Assembly (NCBI GenBank): GCA_043228905.1
Contig: JBHGNT010000011.1
Coordinates: 7,440,001 to 7,504,000, forward strand
Direction: 5' to 3'
Source: Azolla caroliniana
Taxonomy: Eukaryota > Plantae > Polypodiophyta
DNA: 64,000 bases
Every line of letters starts with the position of its first letter. Within the stretch, counting starts at the first letter, position 1. A program made the translations under genes and the position numbers. The notes beneath the pieces are model-generated. The model did not search any database. It was not told the DNA's origin and saw nothing but the letters and a program-made list of their open reading frames with translations. Shown piece after piece: positions 13,421-56,285 of this stretch.

Positions 13421-13854
13421 TGTTAACTCTTCGGGCCGGACAATGGCCTAACACAGGGTGTCTATGGGAGACACTTCACCAAAGGGTGTTACGGCAACCG
13501 GATTAGACTTCAACGCTTAATCCGACTTAGTTAAGTTACTTATTAGGATTGTCTTTCATAACACGCGTAAGATATAACAATTAAGACAGAACGACAATTA
13601 ACACAGAGAGATAACAACGCTTAAGCTTTCATTAATTAACCGCTCACTATTACATTGTATCCGGGCCTTTAAATAGGTTTCCGGTCTGTATTACAAAACG
13701 GTGCCATCTGCACCTGTTCGGGATCGGTCCGGATCCGGAACGGCATACCGTTTCCTGTCAGTCCGTCCACACTCATAGCTTAATTACAACCACATTCCTA
13801 CTACTTAATTAGCTCTCCGTTTCCCACTCTGGACTCCTTTGCCGGCCGGTAATA
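13421..13854 (-). repeat. 3' LTR of Gypsy-2
   Basis: Direct repeat of 22683-23116. Confidence 0.95.
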
Positions 13855-13856
13855 CA

Positions 13857-13873
13857 TGGCACGCCCGTGGGAC
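13857..13873 (-). promoter_or_regulatory. tRNA-3'-end-like sequence (GTCCCACGGGCGTGCCA) occupying the PPT position
   Basis: Ends in CCA 2 nt before the 3' LTR; no purine tract present; near-identical motif at 23357-23372. Confidence 0.65.
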
Positions 13874-13908
13874 AGTACCTTGTACGTCGAATCCACAACT
13901 GACCCTTG

Positions 13909-16629
13909 CTATTCTTCGTCCAAAATGTCCAGAATGCTTTGTTCGAGAGGCTCCAATGGTTCATCTGGAAGTGGTTGTTGTTGTTGTTGCTGTTGCTGCT
14001 CTGTTGCTGCTCTACTGCGGCGGGTCCATTGGTGGTTGCTGCGGTTGCTCCTCCGTTTATGGCTCTGACACCGGCGTCTCCGTTGTTGCTCCCTACGTCG
14101 TAGTGGTCTCCGGTTGACTGGTTCTCGGCAGGCCCTCAGCCGGTGACGGTTCCTCATCACTAAGGTTAACCGTTGTCGCTTCCCGTACCCGGGACCGCTC
14201 GTAGCTTTCAAACTGGATTTGAGCGTCCAACCTATCATCGTCCACCTGAGCTACGAACTGCCTGACCTGCGCCAGCTGTTCATCTGCCAGGACTTGGAAG
14301 TCGTCGGCCAGCTCGTCCCGTATGGCGGTGAAGTCCTCGGAAGTCAACGTATAACAGTCATCTCCTTCCTTCCGCCGGTTTGCCACATCCGCCCGTAGCA
14401 ACTGGAGTTCCGCCGCGTTTTGTGCCCACTTTGTCCACCATTTTACGGAGCTTTCATCAATCAAGTGTTTCGTCTGATTCAGCCATGCCCGGAGGATGGA
14501 CTGAATCCGGCTCGTTCCCAATTGCGATTTGGTTTCCGCCGCATGCCGTTCCTCGTTCAGTTGTTTGATGATTTTGACGTTGTCCTCCGCCTGCGCCTTG
14601 TAATGCGTCAATTGCCTTTGATATGTACTTTGTAATTTCTGCAATACTGTTGACGCTCTCTCTTTGTCTTCCGGCTGCTGCCTCTGGAGCTCCATCCGGA
14701 CCTTCTCCGCCTTTTCCAAGCGTCTTGTATTTTCCGCCCGTTCGTCGGCGATCGCCGTCGTGGCCCGATCAACTGCTTGCTGGAGCTTGGCCATCCGTTC
14801 TTTATGCTCAGTTTCCAGCCGTTTGTAGTCCCGGGGTAGGTGCTCAAAATCATCCGTCTTTTGCTTGAGTCATGCGTTGATCTGACGACGGGCCCGGTCC
14901 TCGCGGTCCTTCTGCTGGCGGAGCTCTTCCTTTAGTCGTTCAATCTTTGTTTCCGCCGTTTTCCGCAGCTTGTCCTTTTCCTACAACACTTTGTCTTTCT
15001 CCTCCTTTAGCAGGTCGTACGCTTGATGGCCTTTCCGGAGGCTCTCCTCTGCCCGGCGAAGGTTCTCAGCAGTCTTCTTTAATTCGGCTTCGGCCGCCGT
15101 CTTCAATTCTCGTTCACGGCTCCTTAGCGCTTCTTGTGCGGCAAGTTCCTCTCTCTATTCCGCAAGCTCCCGAGCTTGCGCCGCATCTCTTGCCGGAACG
15201 GTTTCCGTTGCCGGGGTCTTATTGCTATATACAGGTCGTTCCGTTTCTTTATTCTGTACACTTACCGGAATCACCGGTGATTGGATCCGTATTTTGGCCA
15301 TCTCTGTCGTGACCTGATCCAAATCTTTTTCAAGGCACCGGATTCTGGACCGGGCCATCTCTAGTTGTTCGGTTGTGACGAGCAACCGTTCGCTTTGCGC
15401 TCTTTCTTCCGCCTCTATATACCCCACTGCTCCGGCTATCTGTTCGCCTATCCACCGGAGCCACAGGCTACCGGTGCCTTGTTGTGCTTGCACGGAGGTT
15501 TGATAGATGGGCTCACTTGTAGAGGGGTGGTCCCGCCTGGTCGCGCCGAGTTGCAGTTCCGTTTCTGCCCGTGGACCATCCTGCTGTCCTGGTTCCCCTT
15601 GCGCTTCTTCTTGGCTGACCGAGGGAGGCTGCAGTGACCTTTCCGGCTCTGGCGGGATGGGGCTTGCCGGTGTTGCTAGTGGTGCCGGGGCTTCTGTTTC
15701 CGGTGCCATCTGCACTGGTTCCGGTTCCTTCCTTGGCGTGGGAGTCTCAGTATGGGGAGCCGGTGTTCCCTCCGTCTGAGGGTCCGAACGTTTCCCGGTT
15801 GTCTCAACGGTCCTTGCCGACGACCGTCGCTGGAGGTGCTCCGTAGGCTCCTCCTCTATTTCCTCCTCCTGAGCTCCGGCATTGAGTTTTGCCGCCAAGG
15901 GGTCCACTTCTCGATTCACCGGTCGGCGGAGTGTGACCTTTACGGGCCGTGCCAGTGGTTCCTCCTGCGCCTCCGTTGGGCGCTTCCGGCTTCCGCTTCT
16001 TGTTGCCGCCTGTTCTGCATCCATCGCCTTTCCCTTACTGGCCTTAGAAGCCAACAACTGTTGCCGTTTGGAAGCCGTCCTTGGGGTGCCGTCCGACACT
16101 CTTCCTCGCTTCTTGGGCTGGACGGTCTGAACGGGTGGCACCAGCAAGGTGAGCCACTGCGTTACGGCGTGCCATATCCTTCGTCCGTCTCGGCCTTCTT
16201 TGCCGTCTTTGCCTCTGACGATCTCAATGGCCGCACACAACCCGTCTGCAATCAATACCGGCCAATCCACCTTGATCCCTTCATAGGTGGCAATGATCAT
16301 CCCTGCCCGGTTCTGCGGCAAGACAGGGGGTCTAGGGTACACGTGGCCGTATTCATGGAGCACACGAGCAATTTCGCGGAACAACATATCTCCGCCGCCC
16401 TGTGTCCGGTAGCCCTTGCTGGCTAGAGAGTACTCACCAAAATACCTGATGAGTTGCTCCGGGGTTGGATTGTCGATCGTGAGTATGCCTCCCTCCGGGG
16501 TCCATCTCTGTGTCGGGGTCGGATTGCGGTGGCGAGGATGGATGGTGATGAGAGTGGGGTTGAGAAAGAGAGAGTTAAGAAGGCGGGGGTTCTCTGTGCG
16601 CAGGTTCTCGTCTGATGATCTTGTAGCAT
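13909..16629 (-). pseudogene. Extra 3' ORF region of Gypsy-2 (N-terminal domain, Pro/Glu linker, long coiled coil), fragmented
   Basis: ORFs 15155-16387, 14093-14794 and 13909-14238 lie between INT and the 3' LTR, in sense orientation. Confidence 0.7.
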
Positions 16630-16767
16630 TTCGGTGCTTCTGTGCTCCTGGGTTCGCGAAAGTAGAGGGTCTCTACGCGCAATGGTTTTTGTTTGTGCAT
16701 TCTGGCGCCTTTTTCAAGTTTGTGCATGTCGCGTACTTAAAATAGCATTATGTCCTGTGGTGGCGCT

Positions 16768-19700
16768 TTAAATGCCCACTACGTACCTTTTCGCTCCACG
16801 CTCTTTCCTCCATTCATTCCTCGCTTTTGCATGATTGTTTTTTTTTTTTTCAGTTATTATTATTCTTAGTGTGACGTCACATGGCCGTTGGTCCTCCCGG
16901 ACCCTTACGGCCTCATTCTCTCCGGTTCCCGACTTGCCGTCTCTGCCGTCTTGGTGGTTGCCGTCGGTCCTTTGCTCAAATGGGTTCTTAGGCATCGGTC
17001 CTCTATATGCCTTTAACCGGAATCCGTTGACCCATTTGCCCAACACTTCGCCAGCAAGTGTCCCCAACTGGTAAGACCCATTATACTCCCGTGTTAGCCA
17101 ATATGGTCCGGTCCATCTAAACCTTAGTTTAACCGGCATCTTGCCCATCCGGGTTTGGAATACTAACACTGGTTTGCCGATTGCGAACATTTTTTCGTTA
17201 CCTTTCCTGTGCCGGTCGACGAATGCTTTCCATCGCCGTTGCTCCAATTCTAAATGTAGGATGCTGGCCAACCGTTGTTCCTCCAGCTCACACAACGCTG
17301 TCAACCTTATTGTCTCCGACTCCTTCTCGTTCAGCCGTTCTCGTAGCTGGATCCGTAAGCTAGGTACTTGAAATTCTACCGGCATGACCGCCTCGAGTCC
17401 GAACGCCAACTGGAACAGTGTTGTTCGGATGCTCATTTTGTATGTCGTCCGGTATGCCCAAAGCGCGCTATGTAGCTTTGTGTCCCAATCCGTCCGGTTC
17501 TCGTTGACGATCTTCCGAAGGATGTTCTGGAGCGTCTTGTTTGTTGATTCCGCTAATCCGTTCGCCTGTGGATAGTAAGGTGTGCTTCGTTTGTGGACCA
17601 CGGCATAGAAGGTCGTTAGGCTTTCCACTACTTGTCCGAGAAAGTGCCCCCCTTGGTCACTTATCAATTCAATGGGGCATCCATAATGGCACCAGATGTA
17701 CTCATATAGGAACTTTGCCATTGACGCAACGGTGTTATCCCGTAAAGCTTCGTGCAGTAATCCGTAGCGACGATAACGTACCGATTACCCGTTCTCATTG
17801 CCGGTGGCTTGAACGGTTCTACAAAGTCCAGCCCCCACTTTTGGAATGGCTCGAGTGGTAGTACCGGCTGGTGTGGCATACGAGCCTGCTCCGTTGGCTG
17901 GCCCATTCTCTGGCATAGGTCACATTCTTTTGCGTACCGTACCGCATCTCTTAATGTCGTTGGCCACCATAGGCCACTTTGCCATATTTTTCTGGCCGTC
18001 GCATCTCCGGCATAGTGACCTCCGGCAACTCCGCAGTGGGCTTCTCTCAGTATCAGTTCCTTTTCATCGCTGTGCACCGCCCGTCTCCATATGCCGTCAG
18101 CGCCCTTGTGGTACAGTGTGTCTTGCAGTAAGCAGAAATGTCGGCTTTGTACCGCCAGGCGTTTCCGTTCGTCCCGGTTCAGCTCTTCTGGAGGCAGTCC
18201 TGTGCTCAGAAACTGGTGCATATTTGTGAGCCACTTGTCTTCCTGGGCCATTGTCTCATCTGCTGCCGTCTCCATAGTGACTCGAAACAGCTCCGCATCC
18301 GGAAACTCATCCACTACTCCGTCACCCGTCTCTCCGGACTCCAATCGGCTTAAGTAATCCGCTACGACATGCTGTATACCGGGTCGGTGGAATATTTCAA
18401 ACTCGAACTCCTGTAACAATAAGGTCCACCGGGCCAATTTGCTGGTGAGTGACGCCTTGGACACCAGGTAAAGGAGTGTCGAATGATCTACATGGAAGGA
18501 AAACTTCCTTCCCGATAAATAGTGCCGAAACTTTGTCACACTGTAGATCATTCCTAGAGCTTCCCGTTCCGTAGTAGAGTAGTTCCGTTCTGCTTGGGAT
18601 AGCTTCCGGCTAGCATAGTACACTGGCCGGTACCACTTTGGTTCCATAAGCTGCATCAGTACGCTTCCGATTGCGATGTCGGAGGCGTCCACGAACACGT
18701 GAAATTCTTTACTCCAATCTGGAGGTTGTACTACCAGTGCCTGCGACAATAGTACCTTGAGGGCCTTATACGTCCTATCCTCAGTATCGGTCCACTGGAA
18801 TGGTGTCCGATGTACGGCGGCATGCAACGGTGTAGCCAGGTCGGGCAAGTATCGGAGCATCTGGCTGTGCCACCGGATCTGGCCTAAGAACCGGCTTAAT
18901 GCCTTTGCCGTTGCCGGCGCCGGTGCTTCTAATATGGCTTTCACTTTGTCCGGGTCGACTACAATACCTTCCTGGCTCACGATATGTCCTAATAAAGTTC
19001 CAATGGACACGCCAAATACACACTTTGCCGGATTCAAGCTTAGCCAGTACGCTCTACACTTTTCTAGATAAAGACGGAGGTGCTGAAAATGGTCCTCCTC
19101 CCGGCTATAGACGGCGAAATCGTCAAGGAAAACCTGCATAAAAGCCGGTATATATTCACCAAAGATTTCCATGATGATTCGTTGAAACGTTGCCGGTGCC
19201 GTTTTGAGTCCGAACATCATCACCACGGCCACAAACCCCATTCGGTGACGAATGCCGTTTTCTCTTGGTCATCGGGGTGCATCCGGATCTGATTATACCT
19301 GCTGAATCCGTCTAGGAAGCTATAGACCTCGTGGCCGGCGACGGCATCCAACACTCCATCTATGAACGGAAGTGGAAACGCATCCGTTACCGTAGCCGCA
19401 TTGAGTTTCCGGTAGTCCACGCAAACTCGAATTTTTCCGTTCTTCTTCGGTACGACTACGATCGGGCTCAGCCATGTCGCTTTCTTTACCGAACGGATAA
19501 AGCCAACTCTTAGCAGTTTGTCGATTTCTTCCTTGACCTTGGCAGCATAATTGGGATTCATCCGGTACCGTCTTTGTGCCACTGGTTTTGCGTCCTTGCT
19601 CAAGTGCACTTGATGCTGGTATAACTGAGGGTCGAGTCCTCGCATGTCTTCGTATGACCAGGCGAATACGTCGCGAAATTCCGTGAGAAGTGTTATCATC

Positions 19701-22629
19701 GCCGTTTTGTCTCCGGACTTAATCTCCTTGGCGATGTGCACCGGTTTTGCTTTGTCCGTGGTGCCTAAATTCACCTCTTCCAGTTGCGATGCTTTTACGC
19801 GCTGTGAAACGGCCATTTCCCGTTCCAACGCTTCCTGCGCTTGCCGTAACTCCCGGATTGCGTCTTTATCCGATTCTGCTTCCGCCTCTTCCGGTTGCGG
19901 TAAGTACGGTGCTATGGCTTCGGCAATGTCAATTTCGAAGAGGGGTATGATCTTCGGGTTTTCCTGCAGGTATTGAGCTTCTTCTTCGTCCGCTAACCCT
20001 TCGAGCATGTTGATGCATTCCGCATACCCGGTGTACATTCCTTGCCAGTGCTCGTTCTTGGCTGTGTTGGTACCCGTACCTTGGCTTTTCCTCGCCGGAA
20101 GGTAATTATATTTTTTCGCCAATTCTGTTTGATATGTGCCATTTTCAACCATGGCCGCCCCAGCAATAGCGGGTATGCGCCTTGTGCCTGTAATTGTAGC
20201 ACTACGGCCGAGATGTGAAATGTTTTCCCGCCAACGGTGACTTCTAATTTCCGTATGAATCCTGTCGGCCGCACTGAGCTTGTATTGGCCATCCGCAACT
20301 AGAATGGACATGGCTCCCACTCGTGGATTCCTAGGTCGTCACACGTTCGGAGGCTTATTACATTTACCCCAGAGCCTCCGTCTATAACTGTGCCGGGGAG
20401 TTCTTTCCCTTTTACAATGGCAGTGATTACCGGACTGTTGGTGTCTACCACTGTTGGTCCCTCCTCCGGATTCGAGAAGAGTACTGGTGCTGGTGATGGT
20501 TCTCCTGCCGTCATGGCCGTCTTCAGTCCTTCCGTGAATCTAGGCACGAGTTGTAGGAGTCTTCCTAGTGGTAACGTAATCTGGCATTCTTGCAACGCCT
20601 GCCATGTCTCGTTCTCGGAGTGACTACCGCCGGCAAGCCCTGCGGTGTTCTCCTTTTGCTGCTGTAAGTCTGTGACATTCTGCTTGTTTGCTTTCTTTAC
20701 CCATTCCGTTGCTTGTTTGCAGATGGTCTCCTGTGTCTCCCATTCTTTGGCCATGCCCTTCGACCTTGTGGTCACCTGCTGCAGGTCTGCCACCTCAGGG
20801 ACTACCATATTTACCGCCGGTCGTTTTTCATAGCTCTTCACCGGGCATTGGTTACTATAATGGCCTTCCTGTCGGCAGTAGTAGCAGTAGGCTTTCCGGG
20901 CATTGCTAGATTCGGCATTGTCTGTTGTACCTGGGGCCGGTCCTACGGTACGCGCGGGGTTTTGTACCGGTTGGTTACTTGGAGCGCCTTGTTCCGGATC
21001 CCGGGGGTAGCCGCCTTTTTTAAAATGCCGTTTTTTGTTAAAGCTCTTCTTATTATGGTACTCTTGACGGGGTTGCCCATTATATCTGCCGTATTCCTCC
21101 CGTTGCTGACGATACCCGGGGGAGTGCTCCCGGTCGTATTGTTCGTATCGTTTATTGTAATCCTGGTACCGATCTTGCTGGTCATAGTTATCTCGCCGAT
21201 CACCGTACCGGACATCATTTTCCCGTCGCTCGCCATACCGAACATCCTGTGCCGGTCGGTCACGGTCCATTCGCCGCCAACGTTCGTCTTCTTCATCCCG
21301 GTTGCTGCGTGGCTCAATTTGTCGGACGGGCGGTGCTTGCCGAGTCAACAGATTATACTTGCACCTGTCCGTCGTATGGCTCTTGGATTGACAGATTACA
21401 CATTGCGTCCTCATAGTGCATTCTAGAGCCGAGTGTCCGGAATTCAAGCAGGTTGTGCACTGTATTATTTGCCGAAACTGGAGGTCTTCATCGGACGGTA
21501 ACGCCCGTTGAAGTGCGCCCAGTGTGAGCCAGGAGCTTGTCTTTTCCATCTCTTTCACCCGGTCAATGACCTGGTCGATGGTACTTGTGCGGAAATCGAT
21601 TACCGTGCAAACCGTGCGTAGGGGTTCCCGGAGCGCGTTTAGGAATATCGTCCGTAATTCCTCCTCCGGGGGTGCACCGGCAAGCTGACTATGCATCCGT
21701 TGAAACCGGATGACAAATTGGGGAATGCTCTCCCCTGCCTCTTGCCGGATGGTATAAAATAAGCCTACCATTACGGTCTGGTCCACCTCCTTTTGAAAAA
21801 AATGCATGAATTTAGCTTTTAAATCTGCAAAGGTGTTGATGGTAGACGGGTCCTGCGTCCGACGCCATCTTGCTGCCGGTCCCTCCAATGTGACGCCAAA
21901 CTCTGCTATCTTAGAGCGTTCTTCTTCCTCCGGTGTCAGTCGCTGGGACACATGGTTGGCTTCCCATGTCTGTTCAAAGGCGTGCACATGAGCTTCCGCG
22001 TCCGGATCATCTCTATACTTGGAGTACTGGAACGGCATGTCGTCGTTCCGTATCGGTGCGCGCGCTGGTAGTGTTGGTGCCCGTTCCGGAATTTTCTCCG
22101 GTGTCGGTGGTCTTTCCCGATTTGATTCCGGTGTTGGTTGTTTCTCTTCCTTTGGTGACGGAGGCCTCTCCTCTTCGACTTCCGGTGTCGGAGGTCGTTC
22201 TTCTTCTGCTGGTTCCGGGGGTTCCAGTGTTAGCACTTCCGGTTCCGGTTCTGGTGTCGGTAAGGTATCCGATCCTTCGTTCTCCGGTCCGCCCGGGGTT
22301 TCGTTACTGCTACGGTAGTTCGTGTGCACGTTGTATTCCCCTTCGGAGTCCGATTCATATGCTGAAAAGGCCTCTGCTTCGCCTTCTCCGTTTGCCAACG
22401 CGTGGAGAAGGGATTCGGTTTCCCGGAGGCTGCTTAGGCTGCTGCCATCGTCCGGGTGCGATGTTTGCTGTAACCAAAGGGAGTCCTCCGCTACTCTCCG
22501 GATTACGTTGGAAAACGAGCGATCCGCTCTAATTTCCTGCGCCGCTTGCTGGAAAGCCTCGCGTCTCCTTTGCCTTTCGGCAAGGTGTCGAGTTCGATCT
22601 GTAACCAGGTCGTGCATTGATCTAGACAT
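16768..22629 (-). pseudogene. Gypsy-2 gag-pol with a few stops and frameshifts
   Basis: ORFs 20299-22716 (gag, CCHC knuckles, VIDGGSG), 19220-20320, 17664-19241 (FLDDF, VDASD, zinc finger), 16768-17721 (SDQG, NGLAE, GPY). Confidence 0.93.
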
Positions 22630-22665
22630 CCATCCGTGCCGTCGTTCGCTGCAAAAACAGGAATC

Positions 22666-22675
22666 GTGGTCGCCA
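22666..22675 (-). promoter_or_regulatory. Primer binding site TGGCGACCAC
   Basis: Just inside the 5' LTR; shared with Gypsy-1. Confidence 0.7.
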
Positions 22676-22682
22676 AAAACTG

Positions 22683-23116
22683 TGTTAACTCTTCGGGCCG
22701 GACAATGGCCTAACACAGGGTGTCCACGGGAGACACTTCACCAAAGGGTGTTACGGCAACCGGATTAGACTTCAACGCTTAATCCGACTTAGTTAAGTTA
22801 CTTATTAGGATCGTCTTTCATAACACGCGTAAGATATAACAATTAAGACAGAACGGCAATTAACACAGAGAGATAACAACGCTTAAGCTTTCATTAATTA
22901 ACCGCTCACTATTACATTGTATCCGAGCCTTTAAATAGGTTTCCGGTCTGTATTACAAAACGGTGCCATCCGCACCTGTTCGGGATTGGTCCGGATCCGG
23001 AACTGCATACCGTCTCCTGTCCGTCCGTCCACACTCATAGCTTAATTACAACCACATTCCTACTACTTAATTAGCTCTCCGTTTCCCACTCTGGACTCCT
23101 TTGCCGGCCGGTAACA
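22683..23116 (-). repeat. 5' LTR of Gypsy-2
   Basis: TGTTA...TAACA, direct repeat of 13421-13854. Confidence 0.95.
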
Positions 23117-23121
23117 CATAT

Positions 23122-23388: not shown

Positions 23389-23523
23389 AAACAAGTCCAA
23401 TATTCAGTCATCTTCATTCGAAAACATCTCCACAAGGCGCATCATTAAACGTTGGGGCTTTTGGTAGGGATTCACAAACCCGTGCTCAGTCGTGGTCACA
23501 TGTCGAAGCTTCCATGTCACGGC
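23389..23523 (-). pseudogene. C-terminal piece of DNA methyltransferase gene (motif X to start of motif I)
   Basis: Translates VTWKLRHVTTTEHGFVNPYQKPQRLMMRLVEMFSNEDD*ILDLF, in frame with 29035-29187 once the Copia and one TSD are removed. Confidence 0.8.
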
Positions 23524-26500
23524 TGTTGAGAAGCAAGCTCAACATGGTATGTGATGCTTATGAGAAATAAGCTATAGTAGCTATTTAGCTACTAGTGAAC
23601 AAAAAGGTAAAACAGCTATTTAGCTATGGACAGCTAATTAGCGACTGAACAACTATTTAGCTAGTGACAGCTAATTAGCTAGTGAACAACTATTTAGCGA
23701 CTGACAGCTAATTAGCTACTGGCAGCTAATTAGCTGCATGTGTAATAACTTATGACTTAGGTAAAAGTAAGTGAGAGTGAATAGGAAGTAAGTAGTAAGG
23801 AAAAACAGAGAATAGTGAGTAGAGAACTCTGAGAGAGAGTGAGAGACCAGAAGACTGACGAGAGCAAGTTGAGCTCTACATGTAATAGAAGAAAACCATT
23901 TTGCTACTACAGAGGTAAGTCCCCTTTCCTTTCTCTGTCTGTTTAGAGCACGCTAACGATCCAGCACACTACGATCCGCCGCGCACATAAGAAGAGCCCG
24001 AGTGCCTTCTTCACGTTTTCTTAACATGGTATCAGAGCAGAGTTGCTCATAAAGAAGAGTACAAAAGTGCATAGATCTGAGAAAGGTATTTCTCTGTTTG
24101 CTGATCTGAATCAGAAAGTTACTTGTTGAAGTAATTGTAACAGAAAACCTAGTTTGGAAGAGATAATGGCTGCAGAGAATGCGGGCCAAATAGTTACAGA
24201 GAAACTAGATAAAAACAATTTCCCGGCGTGGAAATTTAGAATGACAAATTTCCTAATGGGGAAAGGATACTGGGATTACATTGAAGGAGACCTAGAAGAG
24301 GCTCCGGAGATCCTAGAAGAAAATGCCACAGCAGCACAGATTAAAGCATTGAAAGATTGGAATCAAGGGGCAAGGAAGGTAATGCATTGGCTCTCACTTA
24401 GCATCTCAGATTCGATGCTTGGGCACATACAGGATGCTATGCTCCCAAAAGAAGCTTGGGACAGTTTGGTAAAACTGTTTGCAGTAAACACAAAAGCTAG
24501 AAAGCTACAGTTGAAGACTGAGCTAAATACCTTAGAAAAAGGTAAGATGTCAATAAATGAGTATGCCCTAAAAATCAAGAGTATATGTGAATCACTTGCT
24601 TCTATCAATGTGAAGATAGAAGATGATGACAAAGTGGAAATATGCTTAAGAGGCTTAGGACCTCAATACAAGAGTTTTAAAACTTCTATGCTCACAAGGG
24701 ATAGTATCCCAAGTTTTTCAGATCTGGTCTCAATGCTTGTGGTAGAGGAAAGGAATCAGATGGATGATGCAAATAAAGGAAACTCAGAGAACGAGGGGCA
24801 AGCCCTCTATAATAATGCCGGAAGAGGCCGAGGAAGAGGCCATGGAAGATTTGGCTCAGGAAGAACCAATAATAATGGCTTTCAAGGAAGAGGACAACAA
24901 GCTCATAGAGGAGGAAACAACAACAGAGGCAGGGGGAGCAACCGAGGTAGAGGTAAGCAAACTTATGTAAATGATGATGGCTGCTGGTATTGTGGTAAAC
25001 CAGGCCATACACAGGCTGAATGTTACAAGAAACAAAATGATGAGAAAAGAGGAAAAGGACAACAGAGTAACTATGCCTCTACTAGTGAAGATTGTGAAAA
25101 GGAAGGTGTTTTTGTAGTGCAACATGAGATAGCAGCAGTGGCTGAAAGCTCACAGAAATGTAATGAAGAGTTTACGTGGTATGTAGACTCGGGGGCATCT
25201 AACCATATGACTGGACATGCAAATTGGTTTGAGAGTTTAAGAGAACCAGAGGTTCCTGGTTATGTACAAACAGGTGATGACACAACTCACCAAATAAAAC
25301 ATGTTGGAGATATCCCATTGTGGGAAGAAAGAGGAAAAACCAAGTATATGTTGGATGTGATGCATGTTCCAAATCTTGCTAAGAATCTGATTTCTGTTGG
25401 ACAGATAGTAGAGCAAGGTATGCAAGTAAAGTTTAAGCCAAGTGGATGCTATATAGAAAAGAATGGGAAGCTCATTGCAAAAGGGAAGAGACAAGGAAGA
25501 ATGTTTATCTTGGATGTAGAAATGCCCAAACAGATTTCAGCCATGTTTGCAAATGGAACGAGTGTAATCTCAGATGTGGAAATGTGGCATAAAAGGATTG
25601 GCCATATAAGTATGCAAACATTAAAGAATATGTTGAGAAAAGATGCAGTGGCTGGACTGCCAAACTTGAAAAAGTGTGAAATGGGAAAAGTATGTGAAGC
25701 ATGTCAATATGGTAAGCAAAACAGGTTGCCATTCCCTCATGAGAGACATGTAAGCAAAAATCTGTTGGATTTGGTACATACAGATGTATGGGGACCAACA
25801 AAGAATGCATCTATTGGTGGATGCAGATTTTATGTTACATTTATTGATGATTGTTCACGGAAGACATGGGTGTACTTCATGAAGGAGAAAAGTGAAGTAT
25901 TTGACTGTTTTCGTAAGTTTAAATGCATGGTAGAAAAGCAGGCTGGTACTAGGATAAAATGTTTGAGATCTGATGGAGGAGGAGAGTATTTCTCCAATGA
26001 ATTTTCTGATTTTTTGTGTAATCAGGGAATAAGAAGACAGTTCACATGCCGATATACTCCACAGCAAAATGGAGTTGCTGAGAGGAAAAACAGAACTTTG
26101 GTGAACATAGCAAGGGCAATGATGACTGAGAAGAACATGCCATTATACTATTGGGCAGAAGCTGTAAATACAGCAAATTACATTTTAAATAGATGTATTA
26201 CATCAGGAGTACATGAGGCAACTCCTGAAGAGTGTTTTTATGGCAGGAAGCCTAGCTTACAACACTTGAAAGTGTTTGGATGCCTTGCATATGTACATGT
26301 GCCTGCAGAAGTAAGAAGTAAGTTGGATCCAAAGGCAGAAAAATGTATCCTTGTTGGATATTCAGAAGAACAAAAAGGGTACAGATGTTATAACCCTGTG
26401 ACTAAAAAGATTGTGACAAGTAGAGATGTGATATTTGATGAGTTGGCTAGTTGGTACAACCCAAAACAGAATCTAGAGACTGATGAAGACTGTCAAAATG

Positions 26501-29034
26501 AAGACAAAGACAGATCAGAAAATGTAGAAGACTGTCACAGAGATGGAGACAAGGTTGGACAGCAAAGTCCAACATCAACAGAATGTTCTGGACCATCAAA
26601 AAGCTCAGATGGTAAATCTGATTCAAATTCATGGAGTGGAAAGACTGGACAGAAAAAATCTGATGACAAAAAAGGAAAACAGAAAATGCCAGAGTATGAA
26701 ATCCCGGATGACCTATCAAAAAACATGGAAGATGAAGATTCAGATATGTCTTTGGATGATTTCCTTGGAATACAGGAAATGAAAATCCCTGGTATGGAAA
26801 AGGCAATAAAGAATGCAAATCAGAAACTGAGAAGATCAGATAGAGAGAAAAAGACTGTGGAAAGATTTGGGTATGATACATATATGGCTATGCACTATGC
26901 ATATATGTCTAAGGTGGTACAGATCCCTGACCCAAACAGCTTTGAAGAAGCAAAATCTGAGAAGAAATGGATGGATGCAATGCAAGAAGAGATTGATGCA
27001 TTGGCTGAGAACAAAACGTGGGATTTAGTGAAGTTACCAAAAGAGAAAAATGTGGTAGGCTGCAAATGGGTCTACAAGACAAAGCATGACTCCAATGGGA
27101 ATGTAAGTAGACATAAAGCAAGATTGGTTGCAAAAGGATATGCTCAGATGCAAGGGATTGATTATGATGGGACTTTTGCACCGGTTGCAAAGATGGCAAC
27201 CTTGAGAACACTACTTGCTGTAGGAGCAGCCAGAAAATGGATTTTGCATCACATGGATGTAAAAAATGCTTTTTTACATGGTAACTTGGAAGAAGAAGTG
27301 TATATGAGTCAACCACCAGGTTTTGAAGATAAGAAACATCCTGATTATGTATGTAAGCTGAAAAAAGCTCTCTATGGACTGAAACAGGCACCAAGAGCAT
27401 GGCACAGAGAACTTTCAGATTCTTTGAAAAATCTTGGTTTCAAAATGTCAAAAGCTGATCCTTCTTTGTATGTAAAAAGTGAAAATGATTGCATTGTTAT
27501 TATTCTGATTTATGTAGATGATTTGATTATTGGAGGAGATTCCGTGGATGAAATAAGAAAGTTGAAAAAAAATCTGGAAATGCAGTTTCATATGAAAGAT
27601 TTGGGAGATCTGAGATATTTTCTTGGTATTGAAATCATCAGATCTGAAAGTGGTATATGTATGTTGCAAAAACAGTATGCAACAACTATGTTGAAAAAGT
27701 ATGGTATGCTTGGATGCAAACCTATTGCTGTACCACTTGATAAAAACTGCAAGTTGAGGGCTGATTTGGGAGCCAAGATAGAAGATGTAAACATGTACAG
27801 GTCTATGGTGGGCAGCCTTATTTATTTGACTATAACAAGACCTGATTTGAGCTATGCTGTTGGATTAGTCAGCCAGTTTATGCAACAGCCAACAAAGCCA
27901 CATTTGGACTGCATTAGAAGAATTCTGAGGTATGTAAAAGCTACTCAGAACTATGGATTGTTTTACAGGGCTGATTTGGACATAAATCTGGAAGGATATA
28001 CAGATGCTGATTGGGCTGGAAGCCAAACAGACAGGAGATCCACAAGTGGATATATCTTTACATTGGGAAGTGCAGGTATTTCATGGAGTAGCAAGAAACA
28101 GGCTACTGTTGCATTGTCTAGTACTGAAGCTGAGTACAAAGGAGCTGCCATAGCCACTTGTGAAGAGGTATGGATTAGAAGATTGCTTGCTGATTTGGGA
28201 GAGTATATAGACGGTACTGTCACAATCTGGTGTGACAACATGAGCAACATTCAACTTGCAAAGAACCCTGTGTTCCATGCAAGAACAAAGCACATTGAAG
28301 TGCATTATCACTTTGTTCGAGAAAAAGTGATTGAAGGAGAAGTTGATCTGGTGTATGTGAATACAAATCAGCAGGTTGCTGATATTCTCACAAAGGGATT
28401 GAGTGTGGAAAAGCATACACAGTTTCGGAACATGATGGGAGTTGTAAACATTGATGAGATGGCTAAAAAGCAAAATGGAAAAGAAGATTGAAGAGAACCT
28501 CAAGCAAGAATAAGTTGAGCTTGAGGGGGAGTGTTGAGAAGCAAGCTCAACATGGTATGTGATGCTTATGAGAAATAAGCTATAGTAGCTATTTAGCTAC
28601 TAGTGAACAAAAAGGTAAAACAGCTATTTAGCTATGGACAGCTAATTAGCGACTGAACAGCTATTTAGCTAGTGACAGCTAATTAGCTAGTGAACAGCTA
28701 TTTAGCGACTGACAGCTAATTAGCTACTGGCAGCTAATTAGCTGCATGTGTAATAACTTATGACTTAGGTAAAAGTAAGTGAGAGTGAATAGGAAGTAAG
28801 TAGTAAGGAAAAACAGAGAATAGTGAGTAGAGAACTCTGAGAGAGAGTGAGAGACCAGAAGACTGACGAGAGCAAGTTGAGCTCTACATGTAATAGAAGA
28901 AAACCATTTTGCTACTACAGAGGTAAGTCCCCTTTCCTTTCTTTGTCTGTTTAGAGCACGCTAACGATCCAGCACACTACGATCCGCTGCGCACATAAGA
29001 AGAGCCCGAGTGCCTTCTTCACGTTTTCTTAACA
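23524..29034 (+). mobile_element. Intact young Copia element; TSD ACGGC
   Basis: 503-bp LTRs 23524-24026 and 28532-29034 (about 4 differences), PBS TGGTATCAGAGC 24027-24038, PPT 28523-28531, TSD at 23519-23523 and 29035-29039. Confidence 0.98.
24166..28491 (+). CDS. Copia gag-pol polyprotein, uninterrupted
   Basis: CWYCGKPGH, WYVDSGAS, WHKRIGH, SDGGGE, LIYVDD, YTDADWA, TKHI in a single ORF. Confidence 0.96.
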   Translation: MAAENAGQIVTEKLDKNNFPAWKFRMTNFLMGKGYWDYIEGDLEEAPEILEENATAAQIKALKDWNQGARKVMHWLSLSISDSMLGHIQDAMLPKEAWDSLVKLFAVNTKARKLQLKTELNTLEKGKMSINEYALKIKSICESLASINVKIEDDDKVEICLRGLGPQYKSFKTSMLTRDSIPSFSDLVSMLVVEERNQMDDANKGNSENEGQALYNNAGRGRGRGHGRFGSGRTNNNGFQGRGQQAHRGGNNNRGRGSNRGRGKQTYVNDDGCWYCGKPGHTQAECYKKQNDEKRGKGQQSNYASTSEDCEKEGVFVVQHEIAAVAESSQKCNEEFTWYVDSGASNHMTGHANWFESLREPEVPGYVQTGDDTTHQIKHVGDIPLWEERGKTKYMLDVMHVPNLAKNLISVGQIVEQGMQVKFKPSGCYIEKNGKLIAKGKRQGRMFILDVEMPKQISAMFANGTSVISDVEMWHKRIGHISMQTLKNMLRKDAVAGLPNLKKCEMGKVCEACQYGKQNRLPFPHERHVSKNLLDLVHTDVWGPTKNASIGGCRFYVTFIDDCSRKTWVYFMKEKSEVFDCFRKFKCMVEKQAGTRIKCLRSDGGGEYFSNEFSDFLCNQGIRRQFTCRYTPQQNGVAERKNRTLVNIARAMMTEKNMPLYYWAEAVNTANYILNRCITSGVHEATPEECFYGRKPSLQHLKVFGCLAYVHVPAEVRSKLDPKAEKCILVGYSEEQKGYRCYNPVTKKIVTSRDVIFDELASWYNPKQNLETDEDCQNEDKDRSENVEDCHRDGDKVGQQSPTSTECSGPSKSSDGKSDSNSWSGKTGQKKSDDKKGKQKMPEYEIPDDLSKNMEDEDSDMSLDDFLGIQEMKIPGMEKAIKNANQKLRRSDREKKTVERFGYDTYMAMHYAYMSKVVQIPDPNSFEEAKSEKKWMDAMQEEIDALAENKTWDLVKLPKEKNVVGCKWVYKTKHDSNGNVSRHKARLVAKGYAQMQGIDYDGTFAPVAKMATLRTLLAVGAARKWILHHMDVKNAFLHGNLEEEVYMSQPPGFEDKKHPDYVCKLKKALYGLKQAPRAWHRELSDSLKNLGFKMSKADPSLYVKSENDCIVIILIYVDDLIIGGDSVDEIRKLKKNLEMQFHMKDLGDLRYFLGIEIIRSESGICMLQKQYATTMLKKYGMLGCKPIAVPLDKNCKLRADLGAKIEDVNMYRSMVGSLIYLTITRPDLSYAVGLVSQFMQQPTKPHLDCIRRILRYVKATQNYGLFYRADLDINLEGYTDADWAGSQTDRRSTSGYIFTLGSAGISWSSKKQATVALSSTEAEYKGAAIATCEEVWIRRLLADLGEYIDGTVTIWCDNMSNIQLAKNPVFHARTKHIEVHYHFVREKVIEGEVDLVYVNTNQQVADILTKGLSVEKHTQFRNMMGVVNIDEMAKKQNGKED

Positions 29035-31091
29035 ACGGCTGGATATACGAGCAGGTTTGAGCATCCCACCTCATTCGAATGCTCTTTGATTTTTTGCTTC
29101 TTGATCTCGTCATAATAACCAAATGTTATATATTCCATTGCGTTGACGAACCGAAAAGTCGGTCCCCTATTTACGTTGGTTTTAATCCTGATCATTGAGA
29201 AAAAAGTTATAAGCAATTTAAATTATAATATATAATTCCTATTGAAATACAGTGTTTTTGATAAAATCCTTACCAAGTAAGGTTCTTAATTCCATGGCAA
29301 CAAGATCTCAACGCTTGAGCCACGGAATATCCCTGATCCATGCTATGAAATATTACAATTCTCCACAAGGAAGTGGTGGTCAAGTCGGCGAAATCTTTTA
29401 CCATTTTTTCCAACTACTTGAACCTAAAAGGTTTGTCATCGTAGATTGAACCAACCATACGAAAACCGTATGGAATATCAACCACCATTAACGTATAGTC
29501 TTTCTTTGGCAACTTCTGAATCATGTCAGCCACATCACCACAATAAACATTGTAGTATAGATATCTGGTGATGTCATTTTTGTGGCTGAACTTCTTGAAG
29601 GTGCCGTCATCTTCCACCTCAAACGCCCTTACCAAGCGTTGATCCTTCTCTTTTCTGGCCCTTTCAAGATGCGCAAGAAAGGATGTTGGAAAGTCATGTA
29701 TACCCTTTATTTCACTAGCCTCTTACTCCGACATGGTTTTAAAAAAAAATAAGACATCAACAAAGTTATAGTGATACACGGGATGGACCACCACAAATTG
29801 ATCAAACAAAGAGTTATACTCACCCAATCCTTAAATGCAATGAAATATTCCGATAATGCCTTGTACGAAGACATTATCAGATATTCTTCAGTCACTTGTT
29901 CCCTCGATAAGCAACCTAGTTGCTTCATCATCACTTGTATTTTCATATAGACTTTGTGGCTGAAAATTTCTAAACCAACATTAAAAATTCATTTCTTAAA
30001 ACAAGATAAACCATAAAAAAATTAGTAAGACCTTGTTGAACTCCGTAACCATTTCCTCTAGGCTCAACTCCTTTGCTACAACTCTTGAAAGCACAGATAT
30101 AAGAAGTTGCTCATCTTTGATCCCTTGCATTGCCCTCCATAAAGACAACTTCATATCATCTGTCGCTTCCTCAATGGTAAGCTCAATCTTCGTCGCAATT
30201 GAGCTCTTCAATTCTAATTGATGGTCAACTTTCGACTTCTTTTGTCTTTGACCCTTCACTTCCTTATTCTCCCACATCATGAATATTTGATCTTGAAGAT
30301 CCCAGACTCCTCCATCCCTAAATGCGAGTTGAAACCACGGCTCATACTTTCTGATTCCATCAGACTTCACCGCATCGTCCACCACAATTCCCACTTCGTG
30401 GAGACATTGACGTCGTAGAGCTGGATATAATTTCGCTCCAAATTTGGTTTTCCCGTCAAGGTACTCGTGGTGAAAAAATCTAATGCGTTTGATGGAGGAC
30501 ATCTTTGGCCAGTAGTCATTGTCGTTATTGTGGTCCCATGCTAACAACTTCGCCTCCTCAGTTGTTAACCCCACATAAATTTTGCATTCCGCATATTTGA
30601 AGAAGAACGTTGTTGGATGCTCGCGGACTAATTGTCGTCTGGCCTCCGCCGAGTGAGATCCTCCAATCACAAAATAATTGTATTGTTCATGCTTCTTAAT
30701 ATCAAAATCCTTTAGCTTAGATCACTCAAGAGGATCCACCATTACAATAAAAGGCACGACCGTTGCATGAGGGTTGATTTTCATCTTCTTCTTTAAATTT
30801 TGGACGTGCCGCTTATGTGGTTCCCTGATCTCCAAAGGGCGACGTCCTGTATTCTCATCTAGAGGGGGGCGATGAATATGGGTTATCGGAAGGTTAAAAA
30901 CTTGCCCTTTCCGCACAAGTTTTCTATGTATTAAGTCCCTTCTAATTTTATTTTGTTCTGATGAGAACACACCAGATGCCAGCTCTACTCCTGGTGTAGC
31001 TTGAGCCTCTTCATCCTCTATTGAACTCGATGACTCAGAATCTAACATTCTCGTCATCTTCTTTTTTGGAGGCCTGGACTGCACTTAATAA
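29035..31091 (-). pseudogene. Intron-containing ParB-like + N4/N6 DNA methyltransferase (beta-class order) pseudogene
   Basis: YFVIGGSHSAEA (ParB/Srx-like); YCGDVADMIQKLPKKDYTLMVVDIPYG; phase-consistent GT..AG intron at 29273-29188; further probable introns at about 30031-29960 and from 29823; in-frame stops at 30722 and 29414. Confidence 0.75.
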
Positions 31092-32263
31092 TGTCGTGAA
31101 GATCCATCACTACGCGCGGATCGTGAGGCGGAACCGCCGGGGTTCTGGACCGGAAGGATTCAACGTTGGCACAAGCTTTAGCGAGAAAGGAATTAAGATA
31201 GATTGAAAGAGAGAGAGATTGAGAAAAGATAAAACGCTTGATTTTAGATTAAGAGAGAGATTAAGAACTCTTGACTTTAGATTTCAAAAACAAGTTACAC
31301 GATCCATTTGATAACGAATTTTCTTCTTCTTAATTTATAACCAAAAGAGCCTAACCCTTCTTCTTTTTCATCCCTCCTTTTATAGATGTTCTCATGCATA
31401 TGATGTATGAGAGGGTACAAGACATGCATAAAATGCATGTTTGCCATTTGGCGCTCATGTATTACATGTGGTGCATGATAACCATGTCACTCATTTTAAC
31501 TCTCATGTATGTGAATTTCCATGTAAAAGTAGAATGATAGAAATATAAATTCAACTAAATGTCATGGCTTAGTAGTAAGCCTACTGACTCTTAACTAGGA
31601 GGTGCAAGCTTCGAATCCTTACTTGCCCTCCTTGTATATATATATGTGATATATATTAATTTATTTATTAATTTGGTCGCCGGATGCCGGATGCCGGATG
31701 CTGCCGGTTTCCATCGATTGCCGCTGCTGCCGCCAGATGTCGAATACCGCCTCGTAGGCCCGTCGGATGCCGATACCGCCGGATCACCGGCTACGTCGCC
31801 ATCGCCTCGCCGGTTCTGTCAGATGCCGATTCCGCCGCCATCGGCGCATGGCGATCGCCGGTTATCGTCAAGTTCCATTTTGGTTGGCCAAAACCTTTAC
31901 GAGTGGCTAGGCAACCTCCACTCTTAGTTCAAGTTACCTTGACCTCTCTATGCTCCACAAATAGACACAATAATAATAACTTTTGCTCTACCTTATATAT
32001 AGTGAGAGCCTTATTCGTCCTATCTATGTGGGATATCTCACAATTTTCTCTTTTTCTTTCGCAACTTCTTACCCACACAAGTTGACACTTAGATGTTCGT
32101 TTCTTATGTAGTAAAGTCCATCTCTTTAAGATCTTCGTCTTTTGTACTAAGATATTAAACTTACTTGCAATTAGTATATTCACTATTATTGTTTTATATG
32201 ATTGAAACTTAATTTCGTACGTCTTATGTGATTTTTACACCATTGCCAAAAATCTTCACGACA
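31092..32263 (-). repeat. 3' LTR of Gypsy-3 (1172 bp) with 12-bp terminal inverted repeats
   Basis: TGTCGTGAAGAT...ATCTTCACGACA; preceded on the minus strand by PPT-like GGTGGGGGTGGA and the INT C-terminus. Confidence 0.75.
31561..31628 (+). other. tRNA-derived/SINE-head-like segment inside the LTR
   Basis: A-box-like TGGCTTAGTAGTAA, CT-CTT-AA loop, B-box-like GCTTCGAATCC; acceptor stem poor. Confidence 0.45.
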
Positions 32264-44600: not shown

Positions 44601-46550
44601 ATATTATCTTCATGGAGGACAAGACGCTCGCCGACTGGGAGTCGGAGAAGAAGATAATGAACTCCGAGTCGACCGGTAAGGATAGACTCTACGATGAGCA
44701 GACCCAACCGGCAAGAGACCGGTTAGCACTCGAGGAACTAGCCGGTTACGGTGAGGATACCGAACCGGCAGAAGAAGAAGTAGAGGAAGCTGAGACCGGA
44801 ACCGGTCAAGACCCCGAATCGGATTCGGATGAAGAGCAAATGGAGGAGCCGGTTACCGAAGCCCGAAGACGTAGATATCCTCTCAGAGAGAGAAGGGCGC
44901 CCCGGAGATTTCCGGATGCAGAGCATGTTCTGCTGACCGATGAGGGGGAGCCGGAAAGCTTCAAAGAAGCGAAGGAAGACACCCACAACCGAAAATGGTG
45001 AAGTGCCATGCAGGATGAGATGGATTCCCTGTATGAGAACCATACATACGAATTGGTGGAGCTGCCGAAAGGAAAGCGGGCACTCCGAAACAAGTGGGTG
45101 TACAAGTTGAAACCGGGATATGCCGGCAACCCCCCGAGATACAAAGCCAGGATCGTGGTGAAGGGGTTCCAGTAGACGAAGGGCGTGGACTTCGACGAGA
45201 TATTTGCCCCGGTAGTAAAGATGACCTCCATCCGGACGGTGCTGAGTATAACAGTAAGCATGGACCTCGAGGTAGAGCAGCTGGACGTGAAGACGACATT
45301 CCTTCACGGCGACCTCAAAGAGAAGATCTACATGGAGCAACCGGAAGGATTCGTGGAGAAAGGGAAGGAGCACCTGGTATGCCGGTTGAAGAAGAGCCTG
45401 TACGGACTAAAGCAGGCTCCCCGACAATGGTACCGGAAGTTCGACTCCTTCATGACCGATCAAGGGTACCACAAGACGCAGGCCGATCACTGCGTGTTTG
45501 TGAAGAAGTTCGAAGGAGGGGACTTCCTGATACTCCTCCTGTACGTGGATGACATGTTGATCATCGGACGGGACCAAGTCAAAATACGGATGCTGAAGAA
45601 GGCTCTCAACCGGACCTTCTCAATGAAAGACTTGGGTCCGGCAAGACAGATGTTGGGGATGCACATCATTCGGGACCGGTCAGTGAAGCAATTATGGTTG
45701 TCACAGGAGAAGTATGTGACAAAGGTGCTTCACCGGTTCAACATGTCAGAAGCGAAACCGGTCGGATCGACACTTCCGGCGAACTGTAGGCTATCCGGCA
45801 AGCAAAGCCCGAAGACGAAAGCAGAAAAGGCGGATATAATGAAGATTCCATATGCCTCTGCCGTCGGGAGCTTGATGTACGCAATGGTGTGTACCTGACC
45901 GGATATAGGATACGCAGTCGGAGTGGTGAGCCGGTTCATGAGTAATCCCGGCAAGGAGCACTGGAACGCGGTCAAATGGATACTCCGGTATTTGAAGGGC
46001 ACTTCAAATATGTGTCTCCGATTCGGCTCCAGAAAACCTCAACTGGACGGTTTCACCGATTCGGACATGTCGGCTGATGTGGATACCAGCCGGTCTACAT
46101 CCGGGTATGTAATGACATATGCAGGGGGAGCTGTTTCGTGGCAATCGAGGCTGCAGAAGACGGTTGCATTGTCAACCACGGAGGCGGAGTACATGGCGGC
46201 TGTGGAAGCCGGCAAGGAAATTTTATGGATGAAGGACTTCATCGGAGAGCTCGGTATACGGCAAGAGGAATACCGACTCTATTGCGACAGTCAAAGTGCC
46301 ATCCACCTTGCTAAAAATGCGGCCTACCATTCCCGGACGAAGCATATCCAGCGGAGGTATAACTGGATCCGGGAAAGAGTAGATGACCAGGAGTTCACAC
46401 TGACGAAGATCCACACGGCCGAGAACGGGTCAGATATGCTGACCAAAGTGCTGACACCCGACAAGCTGGATGCATGCCGGAAGAGAATCGGACTGGTAAG
46501 ACACCCCATGTCGGAGTGAAGGGGGAGTTTGTTGGGAGACAGGTCCCTCC
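41696..46550 (+). mobile_element. Copia B, degenerate; 5' LTR 41696-42427, 3' LTR starts 46530 and is interrupted after 21 bp
   Basis: PBS 42430-42441, gag-pol 42458-46519 with stops, PPT GAAGGGGGAG; LTR resumes at 63125-63152. Confidence 0.93.
42458..46519 (+). pseudogene. Copia B gag-pol, multiple stops and frameshifts
   Basis: ORFs 42317-42832, 42836-43336, 43458-43988, 43972-44334, 44303-45001, 45185-45898, 45923-46519. Confidence 0.92.
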
Positions 46551-52500: not shown

Positions 52501-53040
52501 TCATATGTGTATAAATATGACTTAGGGCAAACAGTTTTGTTGTTGCTACTTATTTTTCTGTTTTTCCACTCAAGAGGAGTGAAGGGAGAGAGAGCAGCCG
52601 TGAGAGAGATAGAGCGTGAGAAAGGAAGAGGTCGACGCCTCTGTGTAATCCTGCCGCCTGTGGCGAGGACAACGAGCTCAAGGTCGTCGCCTTGCAGCTC
52701 GCCGTTGTACATTTCTCTGTGCATAGTTTTGGTTTGGAGTCTTGTACTCCCGTGGTTTTTTCCCGTACAAGGTTTTCCACGTTAAATCGTGTGTCCACTC
52801 TATTTTTCGCATTTCCCCTTTTTTCTGCAACAACGATTCGTGCGTTCCCTTGGTTGTGGCCGAGAGGTGAAGTTTGGAAAGTGTGATTAATTTCCATCAA
52901 TTTGGTATCAGAGCGAGTTGCTGCAGAAAATGGAAGGCGGCGGCAGCGGGCAGCCGAGGATGATGGTGTTGAATGCGCAGAATTACGCCGACTGGAAGAT
53001 CAAGATGGAGGATCTTCTGATTGTTCGGGACCTGTACGAA
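46337..53040 (+). repeat. Tandem array, 7 x 957 bp (B pol end + PPT + 21 bp B LTR + 607-bp C LTR + PBS + C gag start)
   Basis: ORF track repeats every 957 bp; C LTRs start at 46551, 47508, 48465, 49422, 50379, 51336, 52293; junction microhomology ACGAA. Confidence 0.97.
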
Positions 53041-56157: not shown

Positions 56158-56285
56158 GGAGCCGGATGATGAAGACCCCGGCTACGGAGCCGGATGATGA
56201 AGACCCCGGTTACGGAGCCGGATGATGAAGACCCCGGCTACGGAGCCGGATGATGAAGACCCCGGTTACGGAGCCGGATGATGAA
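56158..56285 (+). repeat. 28-bp tandem repeat in the D LTR U3 (4+ copies; also in the 3' LTR)
   Basis: GGAGCCGGATGATGAAGACCCCGG(C/T)TAC. Confidence 0.9.

Follow-up and report, generated by a model that had tools for sequence, protein, structure and literature searches.

A dead ParB-methylase gene in Azolla caroliniana points to a conserved accessory gene of Sola-type transposons

What is a gene that joins a ParB-like domain to a bacterial-type DNA amino-methyltransferase doing among the repeats of a fern? The question is raised by a 64,000-nucleotide stretch of the Azolla caroliniana genome (assembly GCA_043228905.1, contig JBHGNT010000011.1, positions 7,440,001 to 7,504,000; hereafter the window), which holds the remains of such a gene between positions 23,389 and 31,091. 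An earlier, purely sequence-based reading (the original prediction) had described it as a broken, intron-containing gene of horizontal descent, possibly carried by a transposon. We find that the gene is almost certainly not a host gene and belongs, as an accessory gene, to a multi-copy, Sola-type cut-and-paste DNA transposon.

The 523-Mb genome was searched with the exon encoding the methylase motif DIPY (the DIPY exon), which gave 1149 candidates; 150 were scored, and all 150 matched. The flanks of ten matches resolved an element of about 9.2 kb with sharp ends, the copies of which are 95–99% identical. Both terminal inverted repeats (TIRs) were present in 60 of 90 fetched regions, and 55 of these 60 are flanked by a 4-bp target-site duplication (TSD), only one of them agreeing at 5 bp as well. 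A 29-bp TIR core, identical at both ends, has 635 exact matches in the genome (336 forward, 299 reverse; control 0), which suggests roughly 300 copies of this family, family A. The transposon cargo of the original prediction is borne out by these ends; the mobile-element setting had been suggested, but neither the Sola carrier nor the palindrome array described below was named.

The transposase is encoded on the opposite strand, head-to-head with the accessory gene, and matches Pfam DUF7869 (E 1e-41). The same arrangement was found in all four metagenome contigs that are long enough (L102, L103, L140 and L143). The motifs DGMDQ, QLDN and HTHDHIDQ occur in four of four elements examined; we take their Asp residues to be the DDD triad of a Sola1-type enzyme, and the tentative assignment to the Sola1 subgroup rests on these motifs. 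In the available text of PMC10741241, Sola elements are defined by their TIRs, a TSD of 4 bp and a transposase of DDD type. A second source, as far as its available text goes, treats Sola as rare among plants and is silent on any such accessory gene (PMC12973397). A domesticated host gene, or bacterial contamination of the assembly, is scarcely credible as the explanation of the locus. Homologues do carry gene annotations in Ginkgo biloba, Adiantum nelumboides and Chara braunii, all with the methylase and most also with the ParB part, but hundreds of copies bounded by TIRs and TSDs and dispersed over all large contigs refute both alternatives for this genome, and spliceosomal-type introns, nesting with plant retroelements and a CHG mutation signature speak further against them.

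At least three families coexist in the genome: the young family A; family B, which includes the window copy and has related TIRs; and family C, which is about 53% identical. A family-C copy about 125 kb to the left of the window (L226:4050-7035; G000:C11:7314050-7317035) has stop-free aligned exons and carries a transposase and its own variant of the palindrome. Two internally deleted family-B elements (L054:188-6554, 6.4 kb; L059:185-5967, 5.8 kb) keep both TIRs and the 4-bp TSD and are likely non-autonomous. At L047/L048 (G000:C15:3636200-3656199), a family-A element ends about 500 bp short of a family-B gene fragment, and a B-type TIR lies further on, so placed that the two families may be nested there. 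Upstream of the transposase core at L037 (5595-5972, minus strand), a frame repeats a 12-residue acidic unit (S-P/S-Y/F-S-I-E-E-Y-C-L-S) about five times.

The predicted splicing of intact copies yields a gene of six exons and five GT-AG introns encoding about 974 amino acids. Two presumed RNA runs searched with an intact element returned three short pieces without exon joints and are uninformative on expression. The middle domain of the protein is predicted to have a ParB/sulfiredoxin (Srx) fold. An AlphaFold2 (AF2) model of the ParB region of the paralogue L037, with a predicted local distance difference test score (pLDDT) of 71, matched Myxococcus ParB (7bnk) in Foldseek at E 6.4e-7, and also Noc and sulfiredoxin; VIA aligned it with PadC (Z 10.0, root-mean-square deviation (rmsd) 3.0, 99 residues aligned) and with sulfiredoxin (Z 8.1, rmsd 3.0, 85 aligned). 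ParB clamps have a helix-turn-helix domain that binds a palindromic parS site; the match of the helical region here to KorB is loose (VIA Z 8.7, rmsd 7.0, 133 aligned). At the level of sequence profiles, Pfam returned no match for the ParB-like exon alone or for the DIPY exon alone, the best PHROGs hit of the ParB-like part was to a ParB-like family at only E 0.028, and the nearest ESM Atlas entry to the ParB region was DUF3723 (score 0.95, 174 features). The last exon piece of the window copy matches Pfam N6_N4_Mtase (E 1.1e-7; 32.5 bits, where the cut-off is 26.7). A profile or structure match to both amino-methyltransferases and ParB had been named beforehand as the thing to look for, and both domain assignments of the original prediction are supported by these results.

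Selection acts strongly on both domains. Between families, and as medians over unsaturated pairs only, the ratio of nonsynonymous to synonymous substitution rates (dN/dS) is 0.031 for the ParB domain (10 of 190 pairs usable) and 0.046 for the methylase (9 of 120), so that these two domains are under strong purifying selection (dN/dS about 0.03–0.05); the helical region stands at 0.034 (12 of 153). The value is 0.107 for the N-terminus, and the 0.11 for the transposase comes from two pairs at dS of about 1.7, no transposase pair being in range.

The predicted first intron of the accessory gene, between the two divergent genes, contains an array of palindromes. Units of AACTCGATACGNCGTATCGAGTT number 2–16 per copy (448 units in 57 copies) and are mostly 51 bp apart in family A. 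The exact core CGATRC-N3-GYATCG was found upstream in 19 of 21 related loci, over a range of DIPY exon identity from 95% down to 52%. It is concentrated there: 15.8 kb of upstream sequence hold 58 occurrences, whereas 85.8 kb of gene body and 3' flank hold 7, every one of them on the same contig, and 310 kb of non-Sola flanks hold none. The purine–pyrimidine (R-Y) pair of the core changes on both arms together, reading A-T in 45 units, G-C in 12 and mismatched in 1. The two palindrome variants, of which the second is the family-C form, have 2460 and 641 sites genome-wide. The palindrome thus travels with the gene and resembles a site for a dimeric protein. The ParB-like protein is its likely binder, a reading prompted by analogy with a preprint on the alga Bostrychia (10.1101/2025.02.11.637652, available part). 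At L099:5156-5569 a second palindrome array lies downstream of the gene, and the contig shows no match to the accessory gene next to this array.

The C-terminal half of the protein bears the marks of a beta-class methyltransferase. In intact copies DIPY is followed by NPYQKP and then by LDLFSG/TGTTSACALKLFRNTVALEKD (the slash marks intron 5), an order collinear with CcrM; motif IV placed N-terminal to motif I, which binds S-adenosylmethionine (SAM), is described as the beta-class hallmark in the part of PMC10406627 available. The motif order proposed in the original prediction is upheld by its homologues, in which F-S-G-T-G follows ILDL intact. The F-x-G-x-G of motif I, which the original prediction called for after LDLF, is complete as LDLFSG/TGTT across intron 5, also in most metagenome relatives, to about 50% identity. 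Over the same range of identity motif IV keeps its Asp, its Pro and its Tyr, and both YQKP and FSGTG persist. As to the Rossmann methyltransferase fold, a methylase model that retained two in-frame introns had a pLDDT of 37.5, and profile matches to solved enzymes extend to E 5.5e-14.

The predicted target base is more likely adenine than cytosine, because motif IV begins with Asp and not with Ser or Thr, and adenine enzymes outrank the N4-cytosine entry in a profile of the family. DIPY was read in 61 of 68 readable loci among 80 metagenome loci, and SIPY in 2; among 206 database homologues examined, 93 were readable, and the first residue is Asp in 86, Asn in 6, Tyr in 1 and Ser or Thr in none. 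The profile, built from 19 database homologues, ranks adenine enzymes at the top (5hek 5.5e-14, MboIIA 2e-11, RsrI 3e-9, CcrM 9e-9), with the N4-cytosine entry 8s9m below them at 4.5e-6. Some D-type enzymes make N4-methylcytosine (4mC). That, together with the CG-rich palindrome, the span of PF01555 across both chemistries and the two SIPY loci, leaves some room for an enzyme that writes 4mC, for instance on palindrome CGs, and thereby prevents host silencing by 5-methylcytosine (5mC) in the manner of Marchantia DN4MT1. We consider this quite unlikely: motif IV is TSPPY in DN4MT1 (10.1101/2021.02.12.428880) and SPPY in the rotifer enzyme N4CMT, as against DPPY in CcrM (PMC10406627), on the available text of both sources. 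The original prediction's suggestion of 4mC and of kinship with DN4MT1 and N4CMT is disfavoured on the same grounds, the two SIPY loci notwithstanding. A different substrate is still less probable. The best Protein Data Bank match is labelled DpnA-type; DpnA is specific for single-stranded DNA, and such enzymes have repeatedly shifted to RNA in eukaryotes (PMC4738411, available part), so the target might be RNA or single-stranded intermediates, such as the element's own transcript or transposition intermediates. The fusion to a ParB fold and a conserved duplex palindrome suggest double-stranded DNA instead, and no RNA-binding domain was detected.

The mechanism that best accounts for these features, to which we would give about an even chance, is palindrome-guided self-marking with N6-methyladenine (6mA) by the ParB-methylase protein. 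A dimer of the ParB-fold part would bind CGATRC-N3-GYATCG in the predicted first intron, as ParB binds parS; binding would tether the methylase to its own element; and the tethered methylase would write 6mA, rather than a cytosine mark, on the element's DNA. The mark would aid expression or movement of the element within a short window of time and would not act as a lasting shield from 5mC.

Several observations weigh against this mechanism. A motif GxxRxxA supplies the arginine of CTP-dependent ParB clamps. The motif reads GGSHSAEA here and, by eye, GGGHTREA, GGTHSLVA or GGNHTAAA in homologues; CTP-driven clamping by the ParB-like domain is doubtful, because GGSHS lacks the arginine of GxxRxxA. 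Alternatively, the binder of the palindrome could be the transposase or a host factor. The catalytic motif (D/N/S)PP(Y/F) appears here as D-I-P-Y, with D, P and Y retained and the first Pro substituted, and none of the 93 readable homologues has Pro as its second residue; in CcrM, the backbone position of that first Pro touches the target amine (PMC10406627, available part). Of 57 full-length family-A copies, 21 have an uninterrupted six-exon frame and 12 have an open transposase frame as well, but copies were chosen by good matches, so these are upper estimates, and the metagenome contigs may be collapsed repeats.

The mutation spectrum of the copies belongs on the same side. Singleton transitions per 1000 sites in the 57 copies were 6.09 at CG, 5.84 at CHG, 1.86 at CHH and 0.78 at A/T, and there was no dip near the palindrome array. 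As the array region of the multiple alignment is unreliable, palindromes were counted unit by unit: their CGs departed from the consensus unit at 86 of 3584 sites (0.024), and CGs elsewhere had changed at 627 of 25,777 (0.024). The CG and CHG excesses over transversions are 12-fold and 15-fold in 28 Sola pairs against 8.5-fold and 6.4-fold in 29 pairs of other repeats. The CHH excess is lower in Sola pairs (2.3-fold against 4.8-fold), which base composition could explain. Most copies appear to have been 5mC-methylated in the lineage that transmits them. No sign of lasting anti-silencing, or of lasting 5mC loss on the element, was found by this indirect route, full CG and CHG damage being seen. 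The spectrum therefore weighs against stable 4mC, the palindrome CGs going C-to-T as often as others, and against hypomethylation of the kind caused by VANC in Arabidopsis; it has no bearing on 6mA or on brief or tissue-limited activity.

Some of these points would also suit a protein with a methylase domain that is dead or nearly so and that serves as a DNA- or SAM-binding regulator of the element, like that of DIRS1. The non-canonical D-x-P-Y with its variants DLPR, DIPH and NFPY in distant homologues, the lost ParB arginine and the lack of any mutational trace of protection are all in keeping with it, and the methylases of DIRS1 retrotransposons are considered likely inactive in the available text of PMC4738411. 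We nevertheless regard it as fairly unlikely: the motif residues and the methylase dN/dS described above indicate sustained constraint, and DIPY also occurs in P0292 and P0293, proteins inferred to be of prokaryote type.

Self-marking with 6mA, if correct, would have consequences beyond this locus. We put forward, tentatively and with the balance somewhat against it, that a young land-plant transposon family with many intact copies writes its own bacterial-type mark (6mA or, with lower probability, 4mC) at parS-like palindromes that number in the thousands. Such a system would be a self-contained reader-writer with a range that runs from Chara through ferns to Ginkgo, and it would give land plants a source of non-5mC DNA methylation that is defined by its enzyme. 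Self-modification by a transposon ParB/amino-methylase has so far been proposed from sequence only, in algae. In the present case intact genes are available, the candidate binding site co-varies between families, and a single plant genome has thousands of such sites; the proposal is therefore directly testable in a land plant. A positive outcome would provide a defined writer of 6mA (or a second writer of 4mC) for land plants, possibly a programmable ParB-guided methylase; after a negative one, the role of this strongly conserved transposon protein would still have to be explained.

The copy in the window is dead by several lesions (Table 1), as had been predicted. All the peptides quoted in the original prediction are present, as are the three in-frame stops (TGA at 30724, TAG at 29416, TGA at 23406). 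Comparison with paralogue L060, 94% identical, exposed the further splice-site losses and deletions, among them those of the intron-2 donor and intron-3 acceptor and the 1-bp deletion in exon 4. The gene structure had been grasped in part: the intron at 29273-29188 was named correctly, and introns 2 and 3, which join the ParB-like exon to the methylase exons, were missed. The Copia insertion and its duplication ACGGC, present on both sides, were also correctly recognised; the two 503-bp long terminal repeats (LTRs), 23524-24026 and 28532-29034, are identical at 499 positions and differ at 4. Within these LTRs, at 23577-23745 and 28585-28745, runs a degenerate series of short self-complementary repeats resembling AGCTAA(T/A)TAGCTG.

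Table 1. Features of the dead copy and the insertions that interrupt it (window coordinates).
Feature	Position	Strand	Remarks
Accessory gene exon 2, 3' part	30033..31085	-	Acidic linker, ParB/Srx-like domain, helical region; fold from paralogue L037
ParB/Srx-like domain inside exon 2	about 30928-30512	-	Predicted fold; GGSHS at 30664
Intron 2	29960..30032	-	Donor lost to 4-bp deletion, acceptor TTTTCAG kept (against L060)
Exon 3 (HKVYMKIQ...AFKDW)	29824..29959	-	3-bp deletion
Intron 3	29740..29823	-	Donor GTGAGT kept, acceptor AG gone
Exon 4, methyltransferase N-half	29274..29739	-	Motif IV DIPY at 29479-29468; 1-bp deletion near 29717
Intron 4	29188..29273	-	86 bp, GT-AG (GTAAGG...CAG)
Exon 5, first part (IKTNVN...LLVYPAV)	29035..29187	-	Ends in Copia TSD 29035-29039
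Copia LTR retrotransposon, young, within exon 5	23524..29034	.	Not part of the gene
Exon 5, second part	23389..23523	-	NPYQKP (motif X-like, 23466); ILDLF, start of motif I
LTR of the retroelement block splitting exon 2	31092..32263	-	89% pair with LTR at G000:C11:7507735-7508841

Both ends of the copy had been described as cut. For the 3' end this stands: gene homology stops at 23389, and neither window positions 1-23388 nor the 150 kb left of the window yielded the 3' end of the element. The 5' half appears to have been displaced rather than lost. The window itself holds no TIR, palindrome or transposase, but just outside it, at G000:C11:7508841-7514367, lies the likely 5' half. It comprises the N-terminal part of the gene, interrupted by five stops, then 17 palindromes, a transposase that has three stops of its own, and the left TIR, at C11:7514367. 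Nested repeats hold the halves 37.7 kb apart, and in paralogue coordinates they meet within a few bases. That they are the same copy is likely but not certain, because the LTRs bounding the 37.7-kb repeat block are 89% identical and have no matching TSD. Among the neighbouring repeats, a retroelement at 13421-23119 with 437-bp LTR matches (97.5%) starts about 270 bp past the end of gene homology. Within the block that splits the gene, seven head-to-tail units of 957 bp, 99–100% identical, occupy 46332-53189, with more diverged partial copies at 56168, 60976 and 62518.

A prokaryotic or phage origin of the gene is plausible and would be old. In a tree of 29 methylase domains, 19 plant-type rows split from 10 prokaryote or phage rows on a long stem (support 100/99); four rows were dropped for want of an anchor, and the set was drawn up without DN4MT1, N4CMT and the Ectocarpus sequences. 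For the predicted horizontal descent, the tree names no donor, and the nearest prokaryotic and phage proteins are only about 25% identical. No relative was found in viral contigs, and a search of longer proteins with the DIPY exon found nothing. Land plants have few N6-adenine methylases, and no such land-plant clade is listed in the available text of PMC4738411; a literature search, which left out most subscription journals and Repbase, found no land-plant report of such an element. In Chara, a single gene model (P0095, CBR_g41648) contains two tandem ParB-methylase units.

We compared the family with known systems, drawing for the eukaryotic ones on the available parts of each source. With CcrM, M.RsrI and M.MboIIA (PF01555) it shares motif IV before motif I, (H/N)P.QKP and D.F.G.GTT, and with the phage ParB-methylase fusions (Javan69, IMGVR 517045, WO) the order of domains; it differs from both groups in its roughly 25% identity, in DIPY in place of DPPY and in its five introns, and the ParB parts of the phage fusions gave no sequence match to the plant family's ParB profile. 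Marchantia DN4MT1 and rotifer N4CMT are likewise eukaryotic, bacterial-type beta-class amino-methyltransferases. Those, however, are host genes with (T)SPPY, shown 4mC activity and no ParB domain, whereas the present gene is transposon-borne and has D-x-P-Y. Arabidopsis VANDAL elements offer a functional parallel in VANC, a transposon accessory protein that acts on motifs of its own element (PMC5735166); VANC induces hypomethylation, whereas lasting 5mC loss is not visible here in the mutation spectrum.

Two parallels come from algae. The Plavaka genes PAG2 and PAG3 of Bostrychia share a transposon-borne PF01555 methylase and a ParB-like protein, and tandem inverted repeats beside the ParB gene have been proposed as binding sites, much like the palindrome array here; there, however, the carrier is an EnSpm/Plavaka element, and ParB and methylase are separate genes, fused to a 2-oxoglutarate oxygenase and a SET domain (10.1101/2025.02.11.637652). 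The closest layout is that of Sola1-1_Ec32 from the brown alga Ectocarpus (PMC12477816), with which our element shares the Sola type, the 4-bp TSD, AAC termini and an accessory gene opposite the transposase with ParB-like and N4/N6 methyltransferase domains (1104 amino acids there), and for which its authors propose self-binding and self-modification. Sola1-1_Ec32 is 21.5 kb long, with 282-bp imperfect TIRs and 2 intact copies, against about 9.2 kb, TIRs of about 30 bp and hundreds of young copies here. The Azolla element has a palindrome array, whereas the stem 'palindrom' occurs nowhere in the main text of the Ectocarpus paper; the two proteins are likened here by their layout. The layout is thus already published for a brown alga, and the Azolla family is a further case, in a plant.

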